NCBI GenBank assembly: GCA_965242965.1
Contig: OZ251518.1
Span: forward strand, 371,680-435,679
Length of the DNA stretch: 64,000 bases
Source of the DNA: Candidatus Poribacteria bacterium
Lineage (GTDB): Bacteria > Poribacteria > WGA-4E > WGA-3G
Reading direction: 5' to 3'
Below the pieces are notes generated by a model. That model was not told where the DNA came from, ran no database searches, and saw nothing but the letters and a program-made list of their open reading frames with translations. A program made the position numbers and the translations under genes. Positions 4,171-54,805 of the stretch are shown here, piece after piece (position 1 is the first letter of the stretch; every line of letters starts with the position of its first letter).

Positions 4171-6299
4171 TTATTTCAGGAGCTCTAATAGTGCATTTAT
4201 ACCTTTTACGCCGAGCACAGACAAAACTGTTGCAAAAGCGATGCTGACAATTCCGCCAAGGACGATCTTCCAGGGAGTCAGCGCGCCCTTCAATGCCTCA
4301 ACGGATTTTTCAGTGTTCACCAACTTTTCGTTCATATTGTCTAGTTGCACATCCCGTTTTGCGTCGCGTTCGGCACTAGCGGCGAGATGAGCTTCTGTCT
4401 TGGCTTGGAATTTCCCAATCTGCCGGAGGGACTCGTCAATGCTGCCTAAGCGTGCATCGCGTGCAGTGTCGCGTTCCGCACTGGCGGCGAGGAGTGCTTC
4501 TGTCTTGGCTTGGAATTCGCCAATCTGCCGGAGGGATTCGTCAATGCTGCCTAAGCGTGCATCGCGTGCAGTGTCGCGTTCCGCACCGGCGTTGAGGAGT
4601 GCTTCTGTCTTGGCTTGGAATTTCCCAATCTGCCGGAGGGATTCGTCAATGTTGCCTAAGCGTGCATCGCGTGCAGTGTCGCGTTCCGCACCGGCGTTGA
4701 GGAGTGCCTCTGTTTTCGCCTGGAATTTCGCGATGTCATCTAAGCGCGCGTCCCGTTCGGCATCGCGCGCTGCACTGGCATTGAGGAGTGCCTCTGTTTT
4801 CGCTTGGAATTCCCCAATCTGTTGGAATAACTCCCCGAGGTGTTCCAAGCGTGCATCGTGTGCAGCGTCGCGTTCCGCACCGGCGTTGAGGAGTGCCTCT
4901 GTTTTCGCTTGGAATTTCGCGATGTCGTCTAAGCGTGCATCCCATTCCGCGCCGCGTTCTGCACTAGCGGTGAGGAGTGCCTCTGTCTTCGTTTGGAATT
5001 CGCCAATCTGTTGGAACAACCCCTCAAGGTGTTTCAAACGTGCATCGCGCTCGGTATCGCGTTCGGCACTGGCGGTGAGGAGTGCTTCTGTCTTGGCTTG
5101 GAATTCGCCAATCTGCCGGAGGGACTCGTCAATGCGGACGAAGTGTGCATCGCGTTCGGCATCGCGTTCGGCACTGGCGGCGAGATGGGCCTCTGTCTTG
5201 GCTTGGAATTTCGCGATGTCCTCTAAGCGTGCATCCCATTCCGCGCCGCGTGCTGCACTAGCGTTGAGGAGTGCCTCGGTCTTGGTTTGGAATTCGCCAA
5301 TCTGTTGGAACAACCCCTCAAGGTGTTTCAAACGGGCATCGCGCTCGGTATCGCGTTCGGCACTGGCGTGAGGAGTGCTTCTGTCTTTGCTTGGAATTCC
5401 CCAATCTGCCGGAGGGACTCGTCAATGCGACCGAAGTGTGCATCGCGTGCAGCCTCGCGTTCTGCACTCGCGGCGAGATGGGCCTCTGTTTTCGCTTGGA
5501 ATTTCGCGATGTCATCTAAGCGTGCATCCCATTCCGCGCCGCGTGCTGCACTAGCGTTGAGGAGTGCCTCTGTCTTGGCTTGGAATTTCGCGATGTCATC
5601 TAAGCGTGCATCCCGTGCAGCGTCGCGTTCGGCACTGGCGTTGAGGAGTGCCTCGGTCCTGGTTTGGAATTCCCCAATCTGTTGGAACAACCCCTCAAGG
5701 TGTTCCACTCGGGCATCGCGTTCGGTGTCGCGCGCTGCACTGGCGGCGAGATGGGCCTCTGTCTTCACTTGGAATTCTCCGATTTGGCGGAGGGACTCGT
5801 CAATGCGACCGAAGTGTGCATCGCGTTCGGTGTCGCGCGCTGCACTGGCGTTGAGGAGTGCCTCAGTCTTGGTTTGAAATTCGCCAATCTGTTGGAACAA
5901 CCCCTCAAGGTGTTCCACTCGGGCATCGCGTTCGGTGTCGCGCGCTGCACTAGCGGTGAGATGAGCCTCTGTCTGCTCTTGAAACGCCGCTATCCGCTTG
6001 AACAATTCCTCAAGACTATCTAACCGCGTATCGCGTTTGGCATCTAATGCCTCAACTGCAGTCAATCGTGCATGCGTTTGGGTCTGGAGTTCTACAACGC
6101 GTTGGAGCAATTCCTCAGTGCCGTCCAGTCGTGCGTCGCGCGCTGCGTCGCGCTCAGCACTGGCAACGAGATACGCATCTCTTTTGACATCCAGTTCAGC
6201 ACTACGTTCTTGTATCTTCTCGATCCTCTCCAACCGAGGAATGCTTTCGTGACGTGCCGGCTCCGAAGCATTTTTAGGTTGATTATCGGTAGTTTTCAT
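4171..6299 (-). CDS. Tail-anchored coiled-coil protein made of about 17 tandem 35-aa (105-bp) repeats (unit ~RDARLGSIDESLRQIGEFQAKTEALLNASAERDTA). The frame is broken once near 5330-5375 (ORFs 5328..6299 and 4171..5331).
   Basis: 105-bp periodicity is visible in the DNA (e.g. 4441 vs 4546). C-terminal hydrophobic helix WKIVLGGIVSIAFATVLSVLGV. RBS AAGGAGAAACC before the ATG at 6299. One G is missing in the unit at about 5371-5376 relative to other units (cactggcgtgagg vs cactggcggtgagg). Confidence 0.6.
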
Positions 6300-6351
6300 C
6301 GGTTTCTCCTTGCAAATTTATTGTTAAGTATAAGTTTACCATACTTCAATA

Positions 6352-6388
6352 GGTTTGCGCAAGGATTTTTTTACAATCGATGCACCGC
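6352..6388. repeat. 37-bp direct repeat (ggtttgcgcaaggatttttttacaatcgatgcaccgc), left copy. The right copy at 6841..6877 overlaps the 3' end of the Uma2 remnant.
   Basis: Exact 37-bp identity read directly. The two copies bracket the 450-bp REP/MITE cluster. Confidence 0.8.
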
Positions 6389-6475
6389 ACGCGTGTTTCG
6401 CCTGTAATCAAATTAGGGTGTTTCATAAATCCGTGTAGGAGAAACCTCCAGGTCCTGATATCGGCCGCGCAAGCC

Positions 6476-6838
6476 AACGCTCGCGGGGGACAGGCCCCCG
6501 CGCTACGAAAAAAACTTCTCTTAGGTCCGTAGGACCTTAATGTCTATAGCACGCGCGTCTGTGAAGAACCCTAAGGTCCTTTAGGTCCTTAATAGATTTT
6601 GCCTTACCGCGTGGTTTTGATTAAGGACCTAAAGGACCTTGAAAAGGGACCTGCACGTTTTTCTATAGACATATAGGACCTAAAGGACCTAAAACGCGAT
6701 TCTTGATGATGGAGATCGCGGGGGACAGGCCCCCGCGCTACGGGAACATCGAGACCAGGAGGTCTCTCCTACCGGGGAGTCGAGACCGGGAGGGCGCGCC
6801 TACGGAGAGAAATCGAGACCGGGAGGTCTCTCCTACCG
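6476..6838. repeat. REP/MITE cluster: family 1, family 3 (x3), and copy 1 of a composite ~190-bp MITE-like element (6520..6700) with TAGGTCCTTAATGTCTATAG-type terminal inverted repeats and internal AAGGACCTAAAGGACCTT palindromes
   Basis: Direct reading. The same composite element recurs at 29090..29280 and 43105..43295. Confidence 0.8.
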
Positions 6839-10886: not shown

Positions 10887-10961
10887 GCCGTTGTCTCCGA
10901 TTCTTAAGGTTTACGATATTATAGGAGAAAAGCGGATTTTAAGTCAAGGAATTTCATGATC

Positions 10962-11140
10962 GGCATGGCGAGGGACAGGCCCTCGCCCTACGGGAAAACG
11001 GACCGTTCCGGATACCGTAGCGCGGGGGCCTGTCCCCCGCGAGCGTTCAGTAGACCGGAGCCTGGCGAGGGACAGGCCCTCGCCCTACGGTGTTCGATGC
11101 GGTTTCAGCATGGCGAGGGACAGGCCCTCGCCCTACGGGG
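10962..11140. repeat. REP cluster (family 1, four or more hairpins)
   Basis: GGCGAGGGACAGGCCCTCGCCCTACGG units read directly. Confidence 0.85.
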
Positions 11141-23355: not shown

Positions 23356-25059
23356 ATGCACGGCTCAATGATGAACTATCCATTGAATATCGCGCGGATT
23401 TTGGAACATGCACGCCGCATCCACGGCGATAAACGGGTGACGACATACAGTTCCGATGTTCTGCAGAGTTACACTTACGCTGAGTTTTATCGCCGCGTTC
23501 AACGGCTGGCGAACGTCCTCATCCGGCGCGGTATACGGCCGGGGGATAGGGTGGCGACCTATGCCTTGAATACATATCAGCACTTGGAGCTCTATTATGC
23601 GATTCCGTGCATCGGCGCGGTGCTTCACCCGCTCAACGTCCGCCTCACTGCCGCCCAACTCGCCGAAATCGTGCGAGAGGCAGAGGATAAACTTGTCTTT
23701 GTCGATGACAGGTTTGCCTCGCAGTTTGAAGAACTGCAGGAAGAAATCGGATGCCTACCGAGAATCTTTTGCTCCTCTGAGTCGGACGATTATGAGCCAC
23801 TTATCGCCGCCGCAGAAGAAACGGAAACGTGGGATATTCAGGACGAAAACTGGGCGATGGGACTTTGCTATACGAGTGGAACGAGTGGTGAACCACGCGG
23901 TGTCCTCTACACGCACCGCTCCATGTTCCTTCACACGATGGCGGTGAATCAGGCAGATGTGTTCGGCTTAACGGAGGCGGATGTCGTGCTCCCGCTCGTG
24001 CCGATGTTTCACGCGATGGCGTGGGGATTGCCGTATGCTTCGCTGTTTGTAGGCGCGGATTTGGTGCTACCCGGCGATGCTAAACCTGCGCAGATTGCTG
24101 CACTCATCGCTGAAACGGGGGTAACCGTCGCCGCTGGTGTTCCCACGGTCTGGGGAAAAGTGTATCCCGAATTACAGAAGCGCGCGCGAGATATTGCTTC
24201 ACTGCGGCTCATCATCGTCGGTGGGGAAGCGATGCCGATGACGCTCATCAAGGCTTATGAAAAGGAGCTCGGTGTTGAGGTGCGCCACGCCTGGGGGATG
24301 ACGGAGATGTCGCCGACCGGCACGTTATCGACACTCCGCCGCGCACATCAGAACCTGTCTGATACTGAAAAATGGCAGGTGAAGGCACTGCAAGGCAGCC
24401 CGGTGCCGGGGGTTGAGATTCGGCTGGTAGAAGAGAAACGGAGTTCGGATGAACTTACGGGAATGCATCGAGACCGGGAGGTCTCGCCTACTGGGCTGGA
24501 GCATTATGATGACGACGCACAGATCAAAATGCATCGAGACCAGGAGGTCTCGCCTACGGTAGAAGAGAAATGTAGTTCGGATGCACTGCCTTGGGACGGA
24601 GAAACGGTAGGCGAGCTGCAGGTGAGGAGTCCTTGGACAGCGAATAGTTATTACAAAACGGAGCCGATGCCAGAACATTTCACGGCGGACGGATGGTTGC
24701 GCACCGGCGATATCGCGACTATCAACCCGGAAGGCTATGTGCAGATTGTGGATAGGGCGAAGGCACTCATTCGGAGCGGCGGCGAGTCTATCTCAAGCAT
24801 CGCATTGGAGACGGCGTTGATGGCGCACCCACAGGTGCTTGATGCCGCTGTCATCGGTATCCCTGACGAGCAGTGGGGTGAACGTCCGGTCGCCGTTGTC
24901 GTCTGTGAATCTGCGACGGCTGCGCAACTCAAGGTATGCCTCGCAACCCAATTCCCGAAGTTTTGGATACCAGACCGGTTTATCTTTGTTGATGAGCTCC
25001 CGAAAACCAGCGTTGGAAAATCTGATAAGCGAGAGATTCGGAGACGAGTTTTATCCTAA
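23356..25059 (+). CDS. AMP-dependent synthetase/ligase (long-chain fatty-acid--CoA ligase-like). Carries an in-frame 132-bp palindromic-repeat insertion at 24457..24588.
   Basis: AMP-binding motifs (YTSGTSGEPRGV, GEL.VR.PW, TGD.....EGY, final K). The insertion encodes MHRDREVSPTG twice. Confidence 0.75.
   Translation: MHGSMMNYPLNIARILEHARRIHGDKRVTTYSSDVLQSYTYAEFYRRVQRLANVLIRRGIRPGDRVATYALNTYQHLELYYAIPCIGAVLHPLNVRLTAAQLAEIVREAEDKLVFVDDRFASQFEELQEEIGCLPRIFCSSESDDYEPLIAAAEETETWDIQDENWAMGLCYTSGTSGEPRGVLYTHRSMFLHTMAVNQADVFGLTEADVVLPLVPMFHAMAWGLPYASLFVGADLVLPGDAKPAQIAALIAETGVTVAAGVPTVWGKVYPELQKRARDIASLRLIIVGGEAMPMTLIKAYEKELGVEVRHAWGMTEMSPTGTLSTLRRAHQNLSDTEKWQVKALQGSPVPGVEIRLVEEKRSSDELTGMHRDREVSPTGLEHYDDDAQIKMHRDQEVSPTVEEKCSSDALPWDGETVGELQVRSPWTANSYYKTEPMPEHFTADGWLRTGDIATINPEGYVQIVDRAKALIRSGGESISSIALETALMAHPQVLDAAVIGIPDEQWGERPVAVVVCESATAAQLKVCLATQFPKFWIPDRFIFVDELPKTSVGKSDKREIRRRVLS
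24466..24560. repeat. Two family-3 palindromes (ATGCATCGAGACCrGGAGGTCTCGCCTAC) inside the CoA-ligase ORF, flanked by a 30-bp direct duplication (24425..24455 and 24558..24588)
   Basis: Direct reading. The reading frame is preserved (132 bp). Confidence 0.8.
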
Positions 25060-28704: not shown

Positions 28705-29570
28705 TAATTCCGTAGGGCGAGGGCCTGTCCGAGTTAAATCGCGTCTTAGTCCGTAGGGCGAGGGCCTGTCCCTCGCCAGGCCGGGGGATATGAATACGTG
28801 CCTTAGTCCGTAGGGCGAGGGCCTGTCCCTCGCCATGCCGGAATATGAATGTTCCTCGCCGTGCGGGAGCGTTAAGCGGCGGTTTTCATGATGCGAGAGA
28901 TCGCGAGGGACAGGCCCTCGCGCTACGGGAACATCGAGCCGTTGGTGGAACGCGAGGGACAGGCCCTCGCGCTACGGGCCGGGAGGCGGTTATTTGAGGG
29001 TGTTTCATATTTCGATGCGTTCGGTAGGAGAGACCTCCCGGTCTCGATTTCTTCCGGTAGGAGAGACCTCCTGGTCTCAATGTTCCCTCTTTAGGTCCTT
29101 TAGGTCCTTAATGTCTATAGAAATACGTGTCATTACGTTGTCAAGGTCCTTTAGGTCCTTAATAGAGAAACAACGCAGCGTGTCAAAATTTATTAAGGAC
29201 CTAAAGGACCTTAAATCTTTTCGTATCGCGGCTGCTATAGACATGCAGGACCTAAAGGACCTGAAGAGGCGTTATTTTCATCGTAGCGCGAGGGCCTGTC
29301 CCTCGAGATCTGTCCCGGTAGGAGAGACCTCCTGGTCTCGATGTTCTTCTGTAGTTTGTGATCGCCTGATCACAAACAGGTCAGGATCAGGCGATCTTGA
29401 CTTACAGGGCCTGACGCGAGAGCGATCGCGAGGGACAGGCCCTCGCCCTACGGTAACATCGGGCTGTTTGCAGATCGCGAGGGACAGGCCCTCGCGCTAC
29501 GGTGAAAGCGCGCCGTTGGTGGAACGCGAGGGACAGGCCCTCGCGCTACGGGCCGGGAGGAGGTTGTTTC
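28705..29570. repeat. Large REP/MITE cluster including copy 2 of the ~190-bp composite MITE-like element (29090..29280)
   Basis: Direct reading. Confidence 0.85.
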
Positions 29571-29573
29571 GTA

Positions 29574-30518
29574 TCAATACCCCTTCTCCTTATCAATAAC
29601 GCTGAGCAGGGGTTTGCCGACTAGGAGGCGTTCTAGATTATCGCAGAAAAGCCCCACCGTCCGGTCCAGCCGAATTGGAGAGCCACCGGCGACATGCGGC
29701 GTGATAATCACGTTCGGCATATCCCACAGCGGGCTATCCATTGACAGCGGTTCTTCTGGCGTGACATCTAACCCCGCGCCGCCGATGCTCCCGTTATTAA
29801 GCGCGCGGAGAAGTGATGGACCGTCGACAATCTTGCCTCGCGTGACGTTAACGAGCAGTGCATGCGATTGCATCGCTTGGAACGCCGCGTCGTCAAACAT
29901 CCCGTGTGTTTCTGGTGTCAACGGCGCGCAAATGGCGACGACATCCGATTGCGCGAGCAGTTCATGGAACCGCTCCATCTGCCACACTTCATGGACGAAG
30001 GAAGGGGCATCGACTGTTTCCGGATCTACGGCGATGACGCGCATATCAAACCCTTGTGCGCGGCGTGCCACGTCAATCCCTGTGCCGCCGAGTCCGACGA
30101 TGCCGAGGGTGCGTTCGCTCAGTTCCCATGTTGCGAGTCTGATGGACATGCGGTTGTCCCATGTCCGTTCGCGCACGGAACGTCCGATGCCGCGGAGTAA
30201 GCCGAGGATGAGTGCCCACGCCTGGTCTGCCAGATGCGGTCCGACGAACCCTTTCGCGCTTGTTAAGATGACATGGCTCTGGACAAATTCGGGAAACAGG
30301 AGTCCGTCAACGCCTGCGGAAAGCACTTGCACCCACTTAAGTTGCTCGGCATTCTCAAACAGTGTGCGGTTGAAGCCGCCGAAGACTACCTCGGTATCGC
30401 CGATTTCGCGAAGTGCCGCTGCAGCATTCTCTGCCTCAATGACATGCAATTGTTCGGATACCGCCTCTATCTGCTGTCGGTGTTCCGAGGTTATCTCGGT
30501 GTTAATCAAAATCTTCAT
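29574..30518 (-). CDS. D-isomer-specific 2-hydroxyacid dehydrogenase
   Basis: GIVGLGGTG NAD-binding motif followed by acidic D, catalytic R/E/H region. Confidence 0.8.
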   Translation of the reverse strand: MKILINTEITSEHRQQIEAVSEQLHVIEAENAAAALREIGDTEVVFGGFNRTLFENAEQLKWVQVLSAGVDGLLFPEFVQSHVILTSAKGFVGPHLADQAWALILGLLRGIGRSVRERTWDNRMSIRLATWELSERTLGIVGLGGTGIDVARRAQGFDMRVIAVDPETVDAPSFVHEVWQMERFHELLAQSDVVAICAPLTPETHGMFDDAAFQAMQSHALLVNVTRGKIVDGPSLLRALNNGSIGGAGLDVTPEEPLSMDSPLWDMPNVIITPHVAGGSPIRLDRTVGLFCDNLERLLVGKPLLSVIDKEKGY

Positions 30519-37657: not shown

Positions 37658-38485
37658 ATGAAGACGCAACTCATCTTTTCGATTCTGATTTTAGTGCTAT
37701 TTGTTTCTTTTCACGCCGGTGCCCAGGTCGCCTTCTATGCGGATTTTGAGCCCGGCTCAAACGAGGCGAAACCGAACGCCGCTGTGAACGACATCAAGCG
37801 GTATAAACCGGAGAACGCGGGAACCATCTGGGGCGAAGCAGATTTCAAAGGCGGTAAACTCGGCGGGAAAACTGCGATGGCGCAAACCGCCGAGGGCTGC
37901 GGTATCTCTGGCAATACGCCGCTTCCCGGCGTTACAGACTTCTCCGATGGCATCATCCAAGTGATTTTCTCCTTCGGCGATGACGATAGTTTCGGTGTGC
38001 AATTCCGCAGAAAGGGCGATGATAAAGGGTATCTCGTCGTTTTCGGCTATAACGAAACGTCGCAAGTCATTTTCGCCGACCTCGCCGATGGATGTTGTCC
38101 CTCCGGGCAATGTCTCGACCAGTGCGGCTGCGAGAACGGCGGCAAGGAATTGGAAGGTGTTCCCCACGGGTTAGGCGGTGGGTTGGACCAGACGAATGCC
38201 GTCCCCTACTTGGGCCGCGTGGAGGTAAAGGGCAACAACGTCAAAGTCTGGTATATGAAACTTGAGGAAGTCAAGGACCTCCATGCTTCTTCCGAAGACC
38301 TCGGGGCTCCTATCCTTGAGTCGGACAAGGCGACGAACAAGTCGGCTGGGAGTGTCGGTATCTGGCACGAAAGTTGGGGCATGGGACGCGTGGATAGCAT
38401 CCTCGTCACAACCGCCAGCGGCTTTGATGTTCATGTCAAAGACAAATTGACGACGACGTGGGGCGATGTGAAGAGCGGGTATTAG
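37658..38485 (+). CDS. Secreted Cys-rich protein, paralog 2. C-terminal tail DKLTTTWGDVKSGY.
   Basis: RBS AAGGAG. Signal peptide MKTQLIFSILILVLFVSFHAGAQ. Same cysteine motif. Confidence 0.65.
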   Translation: MKTQLIFSILILVLFVSFHAGAQVAFYADFEPGSNEAKPNAAVNDIKRYKPENAGTIWGEADFKGGKLGGKTAMAQTAEGCGISGNTPLPGVTDFSDGIIQVIFSFGDDDSFGVQFRRKGDDKGYLVVFGYNETSQVIFADLADGCCPSGQCLDQCGCENGGKELEGVPHGLGGGLDQTNAVPYLGRVEVKGNNVKVWYMKLEEVKDLHASSEDLGAPILESDKATNKSAGSVGIWHESWGMGRVDSILVTTASGFDVHVKDKLTTTWGDVKSGY

Positions 38486-38494
38486 GCCGTGCCT

Positions 38495-39005
38495 ATGCTC
38501 GGCGCGCGAGGGATAGGCCCTCGCGCGCGCCCCAGTTTGGCGAGGGAAACCCTCTCGGATGCGCGTATGGCATCCGAGGGCCCAAGCCCTACGAACCAGG
38601 AAACGGTTTTTGTCCCGTTCGTAGGTTGGCGAGGGGAACCCTCTCGCCTGCGCGTATGGCATGCGAGGGCCCTCGCCCTCCGGTGCGATGGAGCGTTTTT
38701 TTCACCGTAGCGCGGGGGCCTGTCCCCCGCGATCGCAGCATGGCAAGGGGAACCAGCTCGGATGCGCGTATGGCATCCGAGGGCCCCCGCCCTCCGGTGA
38801 GAAGGAGCATTTTTATCGTAGCGCGGGGGCCTGTCCCCCGCGATCGCAGCATGGCGAGGGACAGGCCCTCGCCCTACGGTGCAAGAGATGGTTATTTTGT
38901 TGCATTCGTAGGCTGGCGAGGGACAGGCCCTCGCCCTACGGTATATTGGCTTGGCGAGGGAAACCCGCTCGGATGCGCGTATGGCATGCGAGGGCCCTCG
39001 CCCTA
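38495..39005. repeat. REP cluster (family 1 variants, about 12 hairpins)
   Basis: Direct reading. The caller ORF 38458..40323 is wrongly extended across it. Confidence 0.85.
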
Positions 39006-39051
39006 CGATTCAGGAGACGGTTTTCAGAAGACGGTTTTTAGGAGGCCCACC

Positions 39052-47964: not shown

Positions 47965-48600
47965 TGGTTCAACGTCGCGGGGGACAGGCCCCCGCGCTAC
48001 GGTTAAAAAAACGCCGCCCCATCCCGTAGGGCTTGGGCCCTCGCATGCCATACGCGCATGCGAGAGGGTTTCCCTCGCCATGCGTTTTGGTGTCAGAGCG
48101 CCTCACCCCTGTAGTTCAGGAGCGCCTGCTCCTGACCCGTTCGGGAGCGGGCGCTCCCGAACTACAGAGGGGGAAACCCTCATCGTAACGATGGAGATCG
48201 CGGGGGACAGGCCCCCGCGCTACGGTAGGTGGGGCGTGCGCTCATCACGTCTGTAGGTCAGGAGCGCCTGCTCCTGACCCGTTCGGGAGCGGGTGCTCCC
48301 GAACTACAGAGGGGGAAACCCTCATCGTAACGATGGAGATCGCGGGGGACAGGCCCCCGCGCTACGGTAGGTGGGGCGTGCGCTCATCACGTCTGTAGGC
48401 AGGAGCACCTGCTCCTGACCCGTTCGGGAGCGGGTGCTCCCGAACTACAGAAGGGGAAACCCTCATCGTGACGATGGCGATCGCGGGGGACAGGCCCCCG
48501 CGCTACGGTAGGTGGGGCGTGCGCTCATCACGTCTGTAGTTCAGGAGCGCCTGCTCCTGACCCGTTCGGGAGCAGGCGCTCCCGAACTACAGAAGGGGAA
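47965..48600. repeat. REP cluster. From 48107, a tandem array of 3.4 copies of a 143-bp composite unit (family 2 double hairpin + linker + family 1 hairpin).
   Basis: Units start at 48107, 48250, 48392 and 48535 with near-identical sequence. Confidence 0.85.
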
Positions 48601-48660: not shown

Positions 48661-51600
48661 ATGACAACACTTAACCTGAAACCAACTCACAAAGCGATAA
48701 CCGCCTATTATGCCGCACTCAACAGGTATCAACAGCACGGGGTAACCCACGAAACCGCCGTGCGCGCCGCCTTTCAAGCACTCCTCGAAGCCTGCACGCG
48801 ACAACTTGACTGGACGCTGATTTGTGAACAGACACTACGCCTCCCCGATAGAAATCCTATCCGCCTCGATGGCGCGCTGCTCGACGAACATAGTTTGCCC
48901 CGCGGCACCTGGGAGGCAAAAGGCGTTAAAGGAGCTCTCCGCGCCGAAATCAATAAGAAATTCGACGCAGGCTATCCCCAGGACAACATCCTCTTCCAAA
49001 CACCGGAACGCGCCATTCTCTATCAAAACGGACGCGAAGTGATGGACGCAGACATCACCGCACCGGAAACGCTTGTCACGGTGTTGCAGACGTTCTTTGC
49101 CTACGAGCGCGCGAACGCCGCCGAATGGCGCGCCGCCGTCGCACGCTTCAAAGAACTTGTCCCCGAACTCGGGGCGGAGGCGGCGAACCTTATCCAAACG
49201 CAGCACGAAACAAACGCGCAATTCCGCGCCGATTTCACCGCGTTTCACGAACTCTGCAAAACCGCCATCAACCCGAATCTCTCGGCGGCGGCTGTCCAAG
49301 AGATGCTCGTCCAACATCTTCTCACCGAACGGATGTTCCGCACTGTCTTCGAGGATCCGGATTTCGCCCACCGCAATATCATCGCCCGCGAAATTGAAAA
49401 AGTCCTCAAGGGAACACTGGCGAACTTCCTCAACCGCGGCCAACTGCTCCAAAAACTCACGCCGTTCTATCGCGAAATCGAACGCGAGGCAGCTACACTC
49501 GTCGATTTCTCGCAGAAACAGCACTTCCTCAACACCGTTTACGAGCAGTTCTTCCAAGGCTTCTCCGTGAAGCAGGCGGATACGCACGGCATCGTTTACA
49601 CCCCGCAGCCTATCGTCGATTTTATGGCGAACAGCGTCCAGCATATCCTCCAAACCGAATTCGACCACGCGCTGGCAGATGAAGGCGTTCACATCATCGA
49701 TGCGTTCGTCGGCACCGGCAACTTCATCGTCCGACTCATGCGCGACATCCCCAAGACGAAACTGGAGGCGAAATACCGAAACGAACTCTGGTGCAACGAA
49801 GTGCTGTTATTGCCTTATTACATCGCCACGCTCAACATCGAGCACGAATTCTACGCCGCCACCGGCACCTATCTGCCGTTTGAAGGCATCTCCCTCGTGG
49901 ATACGTTCGAGTTAGCGGAAGACCGGCAGTTGTCGCTCTTAACCGCTGAAAACACGGCGCGTGTGGCGAAGCAGCAAGCCTCGCCGATGTTCGTCGTCAT
50001 CGGAAATCCGCCCTATAACGCCGGGCAAATCAACGAAAACGATAACAACAAAAATCGGAATTATCCGACGCTGGAGGCGCGCGTGCGAGAAACCTATGCG
50101 AAAGACTCCACCGCAACGCTCAAAAATTCGCTCTATGACACTTACGTCAAGGCACTTCGTTGGGCTTCCGATAGGATTGGCAAACAGGGGATCGTCGCGC
50201 TCGTCACGAATAACAGTTTTCTTAGCGGCACCTCGTTTGATGGCATGCGGAAACACCTCGCTGAAGACTTTGATGCCATCTATGTCGTCGATTTGGGCGG
50301 CAATGCGCGGCGTGATAAACTTGTCGCTGATGCAAGCGTTTTTGGTATCCGCGTCGGGGTGAGTATTAATTTTTTCGTGAAAAACCCTTCCCGGCGATCG
50401 CGGGGGACAGGCCCCCGCGCTACGGTGCCTTCCGGTCTCGATGGGATCGCGGGGGACAGGCCCCCGCGCTACGGTAACGGGGAAAATTCCGCGCGCATCT
50501 TCTATTACCGCACCGATGACGCGTGGAACAAACACCAGAAATTCGATTTCTTGACGCAAACTGAACACGTTGGGAATGTGGACTGGCAAACGCTAGAACC
50601 CGATGCACGAAATACCTGGCTCACCGAAGGACTCAACCCTGAATTTTTGACGTTCATGCCGATAGGGAGCAAAACGGCAAAACGGGAAAAAAAGGAGCCC
50701 GCCGGGGTGATATTCCACCAGTTCAGCAACGGTTTGAAAACAAACCGGGATGCATGGGCTTACAACTTCAACCGCGATGCGCTCGCTGAAAACATGCAGC
50801 GCATGATAGGTGCCTATAACGCGCAGGTCTCCCAGTGGCGCGATAGGGACGACAACGCGGAGATAAGTGTTGACGATTTTGTCGATGCCGACTTGCGGAA
50901 AATCAAATGGAGTGGCGATTTGAAAACCGCTCTCAAAAAAGGGGTTTTCGCGGCGTTTTCCAATGAAAAATTGCGAACGTCTCTCTACCGTCCTTTCACC
51001 CGTTCTTTTCTGTTCTTCGACCGGCTCATGAATAACGGCACCTTTCTTCAGCCCTATATCTTCCCTACGCCGGAGACAGAAAAGGAAAATCTCGTTCTCT
51101 CTGCCGCGGGAACTGGGCATCGGACGGGATTTGGCTGTCTCGTCTCAAACGTCATTCCCAATGTAGATCTTGCCTATGAAAAAGGGCAGTGCTTCCCGTT
51201 CTACTTTTACGATGAAGATGGCACTAACCGCCGAGAAAACATCACCGATTGGGCATTGGAAAACTTCCGCAAGCACTATGGCGACGATACCATCACGAAA
51301 TGGAACATTTTCCACTACACCTACGGTATCTTGCATCATCCTGCGTATCGCGAACGTTACGCCGCTGATCTCAAGCGCGATTTACCGCATATCCCCTACG
51401 CCGACGATTTCTGGGCATTTGCAAACGCCGGCGCACGGTTAGCGGAACTTCATGTCAACTACGAGGCGCAGCCGGAGTATCCGCTCACGTTTGTCGAAGA
51501 TGCGACGCGGCAGTTGGATTTCCGCGTGGAAAAAATGAGGTTGTCCAAGGACAAGACCTCGCTTATCTATAACGAGTTTCTGACGTTGGAGGGGATTCCT

Positions 51601-51813
51601 GCGGCGGTGTTTTCGTATCGCTTGGGTCAGTATTCGGCGTTGGAGTGGGTGGTGAAGCAGTATCGTGTGAAGGCGGATGCGCGGAGTGGTATTGTGAACG
51701 ATCCGAACGATGCGTCGAATCCGCGTTATATCGTGGAGCTCATCGGTTCGGTGGTTACGGTGAGTTTGGAGACGTGTAAGATTGTTGGGGGTTTGCCATC
51801 GTTTCGTTCGTGA
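48661..51813 (+). CDS. Type IIG/IIL (MmeI-like) restriction-modification enzyme: N-terminal PD-ExK nuclease motif + gamma-class N6-adenine MTase + C-terminal TRD. Has an in-frame repeat insertion at 50395..50470.
   Basis: D76...E85-A-K87 (LLDEH...TWEAKG), comparable to MmeI D70/E80/K82. Motif X VYTPQ, motif I IIDAFVGTGNF, motif IV GNPPYNAGQ. Confidence 0.65.
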   Translation: MTTLNLKPTHKAITAYYAALNRYQQHGVTHETAVRAAFQALLEACTRQLDWTLICEQTLRLPDRNPIRLDGALLDEHSLPRGTWEAKGVKGALRAEINKKFDAGYPQDNILFQTPERAILYQNGREVMDADITAPETLVTVLQTFFAYERANAAEWRAAVARFKELVPELGAEAANLIQTQHETNAQFRADFTAFHELCKTAINPNLSAAAVQEMLVQHLLTERMFRTVFEDPDFAHRNIIAREIEKVLKGTLANFLNRGQLLQKLTPFYREIEREAATLVDFSQKQHFLNTVYEQFFQGFSVKQADTHGIVYTPQPIVDFMANSVQHILQTEFDHALADEGVHIIDAFVGTGNFIVRLMRDIPKTKLEAKYRNELWCNEVLLLPYYIATLNIEHEFYAATGTYLPFEGISLVDTFELAEDRQLSLLTAENTARVAKQQASPMFVVIGNPPYNAGQINENDNNKNRNYPTLEARVRETYAKDSTATLKNSLYDTYVKALRWASDRIGKQGIVALVTNNSFLSGTSFDGMRKHLAEDFDAIYVVDLGGNARRDKLVADASVFGIRVGVSINFFVKNPSRRSRGTGPRATVPSGLDGIAGDRPPRYGNGENSARIFYYRTDDAWNKHQKFDFLTQTEHVGNVDWQTLEPDARNTWLTEGLNPEFLTFMPIGSKTAKREKKEPAGVIFHQFSNGLKTNRDAWAYNFNRDALAENMQRMIGAYNAQVSQWRDRDDNAEISVDDFVDADLRKIKWSGDLKTALKKGVFAAFSNEKLRTSLYRPFTRSFLFFDRLMNNGTFLQPYIFPTPETEKENLVLSAAGTGHRTGFGCLVSNVIPNVDLAYEKGQCFPFYFYDEDGTNRRENITDWALENFRKHYGDDTITKWNIFHYTYGILHHPAYRERYAADLKRDLPHIPYADDFWAFANAGARLAELHVNYEAQPEYPLTFVEDATRQLDFRVEKMRLSKDKTSLIYNEFLTLEGIPAAVFSYRLGQYSALEWVVKQYRVKADARSGIVNDPNDASNPRYIVELIGSVVTVSLETCKIVGGLPSFRS
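50395..50470. repeat. Two family-1 hairpins (CGATCGCGGGGGACAGGCCCCCGCGCTACGG) inserted in-frame in the RM gene
   Basis: They encode ...RSRGTGPRATVPSGLDGIAGDRPPRYG... Confidence 0.8.
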
Positions 51814-51824
51814 AAAAAACGCCG

Positions 51825-52270
51825 TCATGTTACGTAGGGCGGGGGCCTGTCCCCCGCCATGCTGCGGTCTACCGGAAACTCGCGAGGGACAGGCCCTCGC
51901 GCTACGGAAAAAAACGCTGCTACGTTACGTAGGGCGGGGGCCTGTCCCCCGCCATGCTGCGATCTCTAGGCTCTGTAGTTCGGGAGCAGGCGCTCCCGAA
52001 CTACAGTGGGCCCGATGCGCGCCCCCCCAACGGGGATAAAGCATCCGAGCGGGTTTCCCTCGCCATGCAACGATCGCGAGGGACAGGCCCTCGCGCTACG
52101 GTGAAAAAACGCATCCCCGCCATCGCGCGCGCCAGTTTCTGTAGTTCAGGAGCGCCTGATCCTGACCCGTTTGTGATCAGGCGATCACAAACTACAGAGT
52201 GGGCCCGATGCGCGCCAGGTTCTGTAGGTCAGGATCGCCTGATCCTGACCTATTCGGGAGCAGGTGCTCC
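51825..52270. repeat. REP cluster (families 1, 2)
   Basis: Direct reading. Confidence 0.85.
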
Positions 52271-54639: not shown

Positions 54640-54805
54640 TCGAGACCAGGAGGTCTCTCCTACTGTCTTTCAAGACTCCGGAATCCGTAGGGCGAGGGCC
54701 TGTCCCTCGCCACCTTGCAAGCCCCCGGGATCCGTAGGGCGAGGGCCTGTCCCTCGCCACCTTGCAAGCCCCCGGGATCCGTAGGGCGAGGGCCTGTCCC
54801 TCGCC
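54640..54805. repeat. REP cluster (family 3, then 3 tandem copies of GGGATCCGTAGGGCGAGGGCCTGTCCCTCGCCACCTTGCAAGCCCCC)
   Basis: Direct reading. Confidence 0.85.

Follow-up and report, generated by a model that had tools for sequence, protein, structure and literature searches.

Probable in-frame insertion of GTAG-tagged REP elements in a methyltransferase turn of a DrdV-like restriction-modification gene of Candidatus Poribacteria

A stretch of 64,000 nucleotides from a Candidatus Poribacteria genome (assembly GCA_965242965.1, contig OZ251518.1, positions 371,680 to 435,679 of the forward strand), here termed the window, contains a restriction-modification (RM) gene between argS and an aminotransferase gene. 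Within its coding sequence lie two copies of a repetitive extragenic palindromic (REP) element, which are translated as part of the protein (Table 1). The Pfam matches of the RM protein are ISP_coupler, N6_Mtase, Eco57I and Type_ISP_C, with no helicase domain. In a phmmer search of the PDB, its best match is DrdV (7lo5/7lvv), which aligns over residues 27-1047 with an E-value of 5.8e-192. The matches to LlaGI and LlaBIII begin at residues 582 and 746 of those proteins and cover the coupler, methyltransferase (MTase) and target recognition domain (TRD) only; as they start from the coupler onward, the RM protein has no helicase module. The RecA-like translocase/ATPase that stands between nuclease and coupler in Type ISP enzymes was not found in it. 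Thus the protein resembles DrdV in its domain order, its full-length match and its catalytic motifs, and is unlike Type ISP enzymes in having no helicase module. A preliminary description of this DNA had labelled the gene Type IIG-like, which is right, and DrdV-like Type IIL is the more precise term.

DrdV, a Type IIL enzyme with a single chain of 1029 residues, is made up of a nuclease, a helical connector, an MTase domain (residues 295-635) and a TRD (residues 636-1029) (bioRxiv 10.1101/2021.01.06.425610). Homologues of the window gene in a species-representative set come almost entirely from sponge-associated metagenome-assembled genomes (MAGs), mainly of Candidatus Poribacteria, with some from Caldilineaceae and Latescibacterota. 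There are several RM paralogues per genome, and the best match to the window gene in this set, which does not contain the window's own genome, is 70% identical.

Reading of the sequence from 50380 to 50480 reveals two exact copies of the 30-mer GATCGCGGGGGACAGGCCCCCGCGCTACGG, both on the plus strand, whose starts are 49 nt apart. The open reading frame (ORF) of the RM gene is free of stop codons across both copies and encodes ...NPSRRSRGTGPRATVPSGLDGIAGDRPPRYGNGENS... in this region. Because 49 is not a multiple of three, the identical copies are read in two frames, copy 1 as SRGTGPRAT and copy 2 as IAGDRPPRYG. The earlier claim of two hairpins in frame within this ORF is therefore borne out by the DNA and its translation, and the coordinates then given (50395-50470) are essentially right, save that the second copy extends to 50474. 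On the minus strand each copy reads GTAG-CGCGGGGG-CCTGT-CCCCCGCG. As single-stranded DNA, it is predicted to form a G+C stem of 8 bp closed by a loop of 5 nt, with a folding energy of -11.8 kcal/mol and a z-score of about -3.8 to -4.1. Folded as RNA, the full insert region of 111 nt is no more stable than shuffled sequences (z -1.68), a consensus scan gave no terminator-like site at the REPs, and no Rfam match was found anywhere in the window.

The in-gene copies belong to a repeat that is abundant in the window. The 30-mer has 31 matches with up to three mismatches, where shuffled sequences predict 0.00, and its core, GGGACAGGCCC, has 68 matches against 1.14 expected. A generic hairpin search recovered 103 GTAG-tagged perfect hairpins in the 64 kb, or about 1.6 per kb, which fall into at least four families. 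Families 1 and 2 account for 64 hairpins that share the same loop; when these are oriented and listed, CTAC follows directly after the 8-bp stem in all 64. The stem is CGCGGGGG/CCCCCGCG in family 1, to which the in-gene pair belongs, and GGCGAGGG/CCCTCGCC in family 2, and the two are related by compensatory changes (GCGGGGG/CCCCCGC versus GCGAGGG/CCCTCGC). A third family has the form GTAG-G(C/A)-GAGACC-TCCC-GGTCTC, and in a further set of 12 hairpins the stems start with TCGGGA. The spacer between the two in-gene copies, CCTTCCGGTCTCGATG, matches the reverse complement of half a family-3 hairpin (GTAGGCGAGACCTCCCGGTCTCGATG) at 15 of its 16 positions, a likeness judged by eye against family-3 copies at 24460-24560 and in the loop DNA of two related loci, L084 and L001. 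It looks like the remnant of an older insertion.

REPs in the window are mostly intergenic and often arrayed, with alternating orientation, as at 286-/331+ and 11022-/11067+. Copies arrayed directly recur every 47-50 nt, and inverted doublets are frequent; examples lie at 286-733, 10970-11131, 28758-29551, 38712-38939 and 54692-54802. Only two genes of the window have internal copies. An unpaired GTAG adjoining a palindrome, a short and stable G+C stem (5-13 bp) and loop, and a high number of mostly intergenic copies, frequently in inverted pairs or clusters, are hallmarks of the GTAG-tagged REP superfamily, and these three are found here. As read from the sequence, family 1 has stop codons in only one of its six reading frames, so that survival of a copy in frame would be limited only by the multiple-of-three rule and by the protein fold. 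The left flanks of family-1 copies, here 50394-50401, often form GCGATCGC or CGATCG, which gives an 8-mer palindrome with the sequence of the cyanobacterial highly iterated palindrome HIP1. The 8-mer is thus part of the REP unit in a genome of no apparent cyanobacterial character. Among the metagenome contigs of the Joint Genome Institute that were scanned, the exact REP had no match, and a degenerate family-1/2 pattern gave 24 isolated singles and no arrays.

Table 1. Features of the RM locus, the in-gene REP pair and the second affected gene, in window coordinates
Feature	Position	Strand	Remarks
Long-chain acyl-CoA synthetase ORF	23356-25053	+	1ult match, E 5e-116
Upstream intergenic array	47973-48508	+	Four family-1 REPs between argS and RM gene
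RM gene	48661-51813	+	1050 aa, counted from the ATG that fits the N-terminus of the homologues; nuclease, helical connector, gamma-class N6-adenine MTase, TRD
PD...ExK-type nuclease motif	48862-48924	+	RLD70GA ... WE85AK87, intact
MTase motif I	49693-49728	+	IIDAFVGTGNFI, intact
MTase motif IV	49999-50022	+	IGNPPYNA, intact
Motif VIII region and outgoing strand	50329-50382	+	DASVFGIRVGVSINFFVK; F561 aligns with DrdV F562, R564 with DrdV K567
Whole expanded turn	50383-50490	+	aa 575-610, 36 aa; G7 R6 P5 S4
Segment absent from L082	50386-50427	+	42 nt (14 codons), bounded by direct repeat CCTTCC; boundary can slide 6 nt
REP copy 1, family 1	50396-50425	+	Stem 50399-50406/50412-50419, loop 50407-50411, CTAC 50420-50423 (GTAG on the minus strand)
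Spacer between the REPs	50428-50443	+	CCTTCCGGTCTCGATG; encodes PSGLD
REP copy 2, family 1	50445-50474	+	Hairpin plus tag 50448-50472; DNA identical to copy 1
Returning hairpin strand	50491-50511	+	ARIFYYR
Downstream intergenic array	51839-52101		Four REPs, mixed orientation, between RM gene and aminotransferase gene

Alignment to the solved structure of DrdV indicates where in the protein the insert lies. HMMER alignments break exactly at the insert, with query residues 579/610 facing residues 582/587 of DrdV and 987/990 of LlaGI. The turn, which is 2-4 residues long in DrdV and LlaGI, has 36 residues here; in a MAFFT alignment of 80 species-representative homologues it usually has 8, and ranges from 7 to 18 except in L001. 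By this alignment, the site is the distal turn of the beta-hairpin that follows motif VIII, equivalent to about residues 578-586 of DrdV, inside the MTase domain and some 50 residues before the TRD. The preliminary description had placed it in the linker between MTase and TRD, which is wrong, given the domain limits of DrdV (MTase 295-635, TRD from 636). The motif VIII strand is IRVGVSINFFVK. In DrdV, F562 stacks on the flipped adenine while K567 fills the space it has vacated (bioRxiv 10.1101/2021.01.06.425610); their counterparts F561 and R564 lie 11-14 residues upstream of the insert. An AlphaFold2 model has a strand at 567-574, a coil with predicted local distance difference test (pLDDT) values below 50 at 579-609, and a strand at 612-617. 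The model is of the full-length protein and was built from an alignment of 44 sequences; with a mean pLDDT of 50 and a predicted template modelling (pTM) score of 0.38, only its secondary structure around the site was used.

Related loci differ in the REP units that they hold at this turn. Two of them, L082 and L083, share argS upstream and the aminotransferase gene downstream with the window gene and so are its orthologues. L082 has REP2 only (NPSGLDAIAGDRPPRYGNGDNA) and L083 has REP1 only (NPSRRSRGTGPRATVLPDLDSP), while the window gene holds both, each unit being 42 nt or 14 codons long. The segment missing from L082 is bounded by the direct repeat CCTTCC, and its boundaries would fit either a gain of the duplication type or a deletion between the two repeats. 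CCTTCC belongs to the neighbouring repeat remnant and is not found at other REP copies. The closest relative, L081, is a non-syntenic paralogue with 95% amino acid identity; at the same codon it has a decayed unit of family 2 and, after this, one of family 1 that runs in the opposite orientation (RSAGACPPRS). The loop of L084 spans 294 nt and contains two family-3 units, two GGGACA/TGTCCC hairpins (GGGACA-AGGA-TGTCCC, of the kind seen in the further set of the window) and one family-1 unit; a second family-1 unit has lost 27 nt in frame between GGGGA repeats. In the loop of L001 there are three 33-nt family-3-like units in tandem. The flanks of L081-L084 are rich in family-1/2 REPs, of which L001-L080 have none, and hence presence of the insert follows the genome's REP load.

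The preliminary description had called for a comparison of the insertion point with homologues, and this favours an insertion. Distant relatives have a REP-free turn of 8 residues, each orthologue holds a single REP, and the inserted DNA is identical to intergenic copies. No homologue in these comparisons had the peptide segment without repeat-like DNA, the pattern that the preliminary description had named as counting against it.

The MTase turn is one of two sites that behave in this way. Among 121 proteins, the query and 120 close homologues with 65-95% identity, internal length variation of five residues or more is confined to two places, one after residues 62-66 and the other in the MTase hairpin turn. 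REP-derived peptides occur in 70 of these proteins, all at the two sites and none elsewhere. At the MTase turn no fewer than 21 distinct architectures occur, the loops being 9-133 residues long; of the five open frames of family 1, four are used, in both orientations, alongside family 2, family 3 (RRDLPVS) and a GQGCPSYP family. The variety of frames, in both orientations, speaks against selection for a specific peptide. That only two turns are affected speaks for strong structural filtering, to which insertion beside REPs already present may have added. The site in the nuclease, at about 48844-48858, lies just before the catalytic RLD strand and is empty in the window gene, where it reads DRNP. 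In the homologues P0053-P0120 it holds up to 51 extra residues, mostly SRGTGPRAT repeats in one frame.

The second affected gene of the window encodes a long-chain acyl-CoA synthetase. Some 46 extra residues (362-410) occur in it where 1ult has a turn of three residues (372-376), and the extra DNA (24425-24590) consists of two family-3 GTAG hairpins, CATCGAGACC-GGGA-GGTCTCG-CCTAC. The preliminary description had counted two intragenic cases in 64 kb. Both are real and independent, although the case in the acyl-CoA synthetase involves a different hairpin family from that in the RM gene.

The inserted segment in the RM gene is, in all likelihood, composed of two copies of a lineage-specific GTAG-tagged REP and the remnant of a third hairpin family, lying in frame in the turn after motif VIII. 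It is probable that this composition arose passively, with REPs being inserted, gained and lost in a surface turn that permits it, and with a filter for an open frame and an intact fold. REPs would enter genes more or less at random, either by single-strand transposition of the type carried out by REP-associated tyrosine transposases (RAYTs) or by local duplication and recombination with other copies, and they would be lost by deletion between short direct repeats. Selection would purge those events that break the frame or the fold, so that only insertions in structurally permissive surface turns persist, and a resident REP would make that place more liable to new gains and losses. The resulting peptide, rich in Gly, Arg and Pro, would then be a flexible surface loop with no sequence-specific role.

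Three observations weigh against passive insertion in a surface turn. The first, which is weak evidence, is that a tblastn search of the window with an approximate RAYT query sequence found no RAYT gene. The same query did find RAYTs in the loci L044, L073 and L040, and RAYTs (Y1_Tnp, PF01797) are numerous in Poribacteria, with at least 120 matches in a protein search; among the best 120 of these matches, none is on a contig of the closest relatives. The second is that surface exposure of the turn is deduced from the alignment to solved structures and from a poor AlphaFold2 model. The third concerns the DNA of the insert, which ought to drift neutrally. The in-gene REPs are identical at 30 of 30 positions to the orthologue copies (L082/L083 7740-7770), while in the same comparisons third codon positions are 73-75% identical and nucleotides overall 85-86%. 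The probability that 30 unconstrained sites stay identical is approximately 0.75^30 = 2e-4, which suggests that the in-gene copies are recent and independent, are homogenised against other copies, or are constrained as DNA or RNA hairpins.

How the second copy came to be there may be explained in another way. It has been considered that a unit of about 49 nt, comprising half a family-3 hairpin and a family-1 REP, was duplicated locally in tandem or by slippage and that a 7-nt deletion then restored the frame, or that the copy was acquired by gene conversion from a paralogue. This is possible, albeit less probable than not, and it concerns only the origin of the second copy, being otherwise compatible with passive REP insertion. 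Both units start with CCTTCC and differ mainly by 7 nt (42 versus 49), and a 49-nt period is found also in the intergenic direct arrays at 28905/28954 and 29430/29479/29528. The gene is mosaic with respect to its paralogues, and conversion would fit the identity of REP copies across diverged orthologues. Nevertheless, duplication requires two events, +49 and then -7, and the presence of REP1 alone in L083 and of REP2 alone in L082 is explained at least as well by independent gains and losses. Nor can duplication yield the REP of opposite orientation that L081 has at the same site.

The mosaic structure is most evident in the TRD. Its core (50731-51180, aa 691-840) has 50-66% nucleotide identity to the syntenic L082 and L083, and 94-100% to the non-syntenic L081. 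This implies that a TRD cassette has been exchanged between loci or genomes, going by the pattern of identity, and the orthologous loci probably differ in recognition specificity. Since even syntenic orthologues diverge in the TRD core, the recognition sequence of the window enzyme probably differs from that of DrdV. The REP site was considered as a breakpoint of the exchanged TRD. This is unsupported, as the syntenic orthologues lose identity slowly from aa 630 on and steeply only from aa 691.

A further proposal is that the REP arrays are exploited by their host: gain and loss of 49-nt units might switch the reading frame, the arrays might provide homology junctions for the shuffling of nuclease and TRD modules, or they might create a hypervariable surface that evades phage inhibitors. 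This is regarded as improbable. It would account for the restriction to exactly two sites, each adjoining a strand with catalytic residues, and for the recurrence there, seen in 70 of 121 homologues and in no fewer than 21 architectures. The spacing of 49 nt is not divisible by three, the TRD core (aa 691-840) has clearly been exchanged, and the REP DNA is conserved above the neutral expectation. However, all five of the alleles examined at the DNA level are in frame. Four of 84 related loci have a broken RM homologue (L007, L052, L055 and L064, with longest ORFs of 526-808 aa), and in none of them does the break fall at either REP hotspot. The drop in identity starts 20-80 residues downstream of the REPs, the variety of frames and orientations implies that no particular peptide is selected, and the REPs behave in the same manner in the unrelated acyl-CoA synthetase. 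That the two REP-filled turns are put to use in the sponge-symbiont lineage, as portable homology blocks for the exchange of modules between paralogues or as a 49-nt frame-shifting on/off switch, is likewise improbable. If it were true, the identity of REP DNA across diverged orthologues would represent selection for, or continual homogenisation of, the junctions.

The preliminary description had also raised the possibility that the insert inactivates the RM enzyme. In its stronger form, the enzyme would be inactivated or crippled and the gene a decaying pseudogene or a methylase-only remnant, which is very improbable. Its one point of support is that the insert begins only about 11-14 residues past the motif VIII residues that contact the flipped base. 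Against it, the ORF is uninterrupted, and the catalytic motifs are intact: D70, E85, K87, FVGTGNF (within DAFVGTGNF) and NPPY (within GNPPYN) are invariant in 44 homologues. The ratio of non-synonymous to synonymous substitutions (dN/dS) is 0.10 in comparison with L081, 0.18 with L082 and 0.20 with L083, over 1035-1040 codons, which at the level of codon change shows purifying selection on the gene. Furthermore, homologues with much longer inserts, with loops of up to 133 residues, keep full-length ORFs. Judged from these sequence comparisons, inactivation by the insert is unlikely and the enzyme most likely still works, although the insert may have a quantitative effect on its activity. Finally, that repeat-induced misassembly put the REPs in the gene is scarcely credible, for while REPs are extremely dense in this genome and can mislead the assembly of short reads, the independent assemblies ERZ23496388, ERZ26050812 and ERZ23495997, which come from other samples, show REPs at this very codon and keep the frame, and the insert is an exact multiple of three in length with no stop codon.

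Intragenic REPs of this kind have been described before. GTAG-tagged REPs occur occasionally in frame in known genes, more than half of them as dimers or groups that encode 20-30 residues; REP clusters may encode up to 82 residues, and different REPs have been found at about the same site of recB in two Xanthomonas species (Di Nocera, De Gregorio and Rocco 2013, PMC3733652). The elements described here are like those in having a short G+C hairpin with GTAG adjoining the stem, in their many, mostly intergenic copies, and in their occurrence in pairs and clusters. Unlike the published cases, the host belongs to an uncultured lineage of sponge symbionts, whose relatives are labelled Candidatus Poribacteria, and the target is a Type IIL RM enzyme instead of a replication or repair gene. 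A further difference is the recurrent targeting of the same two turns across dozens of paralogues, in which at least four hairpin families take part and arrays add up to about 125 residues over the baseline. Intragenic REP insertion is therefore already known, though the present case is documented unusually well, and what is added here is the recurrent colonisation of two turns in Type IIL paralogues by several families, together with the homogeneity of the in-gene copies. Among the papers searched, none was found to describe REPs in Poribacteria or in RM enzymes.

In-frame repeat insertions have been reviewed (PMC3184786), the classic precedent being the Rickettsia palindromic elements (RPEs; Ogata et al. 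2000, as cited in PMC3184786 and PMC3733652). As far as those two accounts of them go, RPEs are likewise selfish palindromic repeats that stand in frame in coding genes and are kept because they do not break the fold; the likeness is in behaviour only. RPEs are about 105-146 bp long (PMC3184786) and those of R. conorii end in CGTC (PMC3733652), whereas the elements here are of about 30-40 nt and are tagged with GTAG. Thus, none of the features that define RPEs, a length of about 100-150 bp, a CGTC tag and restriction to Rickettsia, is found in them. No dedicated transposase is known for RPEs.

In their GTAG-tagged hairpins, inverted doublets and arrays, the elements resemble the REP and REPIN systems associated with RAYTs in Proteobacteria, which are termed REPtrons. 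Classical miniature inverted-repeat transposable elements, which derive from DDE transposases, have terminal inverted repeats and a target-site duplication of fixed length; the unit here is a single hairpin with an asymmetric GTAG tag, and the 42-nt indel at the MTase turn is bounded by the CCTTCC repeat. A parallel to REPtrons exists in Poribacteria, where the RAYT gene of L044 is flanked by GTAG REPs, but the sequence of these (GTAGGTTGGGTTGAG...) differs from families 1-3. This REPtron, at 5560-6640 of L044, comes from another Poribacteria MAG and lies directly downstream of a homologue of the RM gene. Its RAYT gene (5904-6512) encodes the HUH motif LPDHLHCIW followed by YIHYNPVKHG, and the flanking REPs are inverted. 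The ORF that follows in this locus takes its first codons from a family-3-like hairpin (MGRDQEVAPT).

At two turns and no others, this Type IIL family tolerates from 1 to about 125 extra residues, which amounts to a map of permissive sites for the engineering of DrdV- or MmeI-like enzymes. The locus also extends in-frame REP colonisation to uncultured sponge symbionts, and the finding of in-gene REPs at the family consensus, in a gene that diverges around them, bears on how REP families are maintained.

REPs of this type matter for annotation as well, since they inflate protein lengths, mislead gene callers and can pass for low-complexity linkers. As they have no stops in most frames, intergenic arrays give rise to long spurious ORFs and N-terminal extensions, to which the arrays at 38458-39050, 28892-29596, 10960-11130 and 54691-54800 are prone. 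The hairpins at 38818-38939 lie in a 621-aa ORF and were considered as a third intragenic case. This was rejected, because the true protein starts downstream, at MKVTNVERILVDVPF, and the REPs are intergenic; read from the translation, the ORF at 38458 has an enolase-superfamily protein that begins about 199 codons in. Upstream of the L081 paralogue, at 1198-2307 of that locus, are four tandem 77-aa genes with no Pfam match, which follow one another at a regular pitch of 292 nt.

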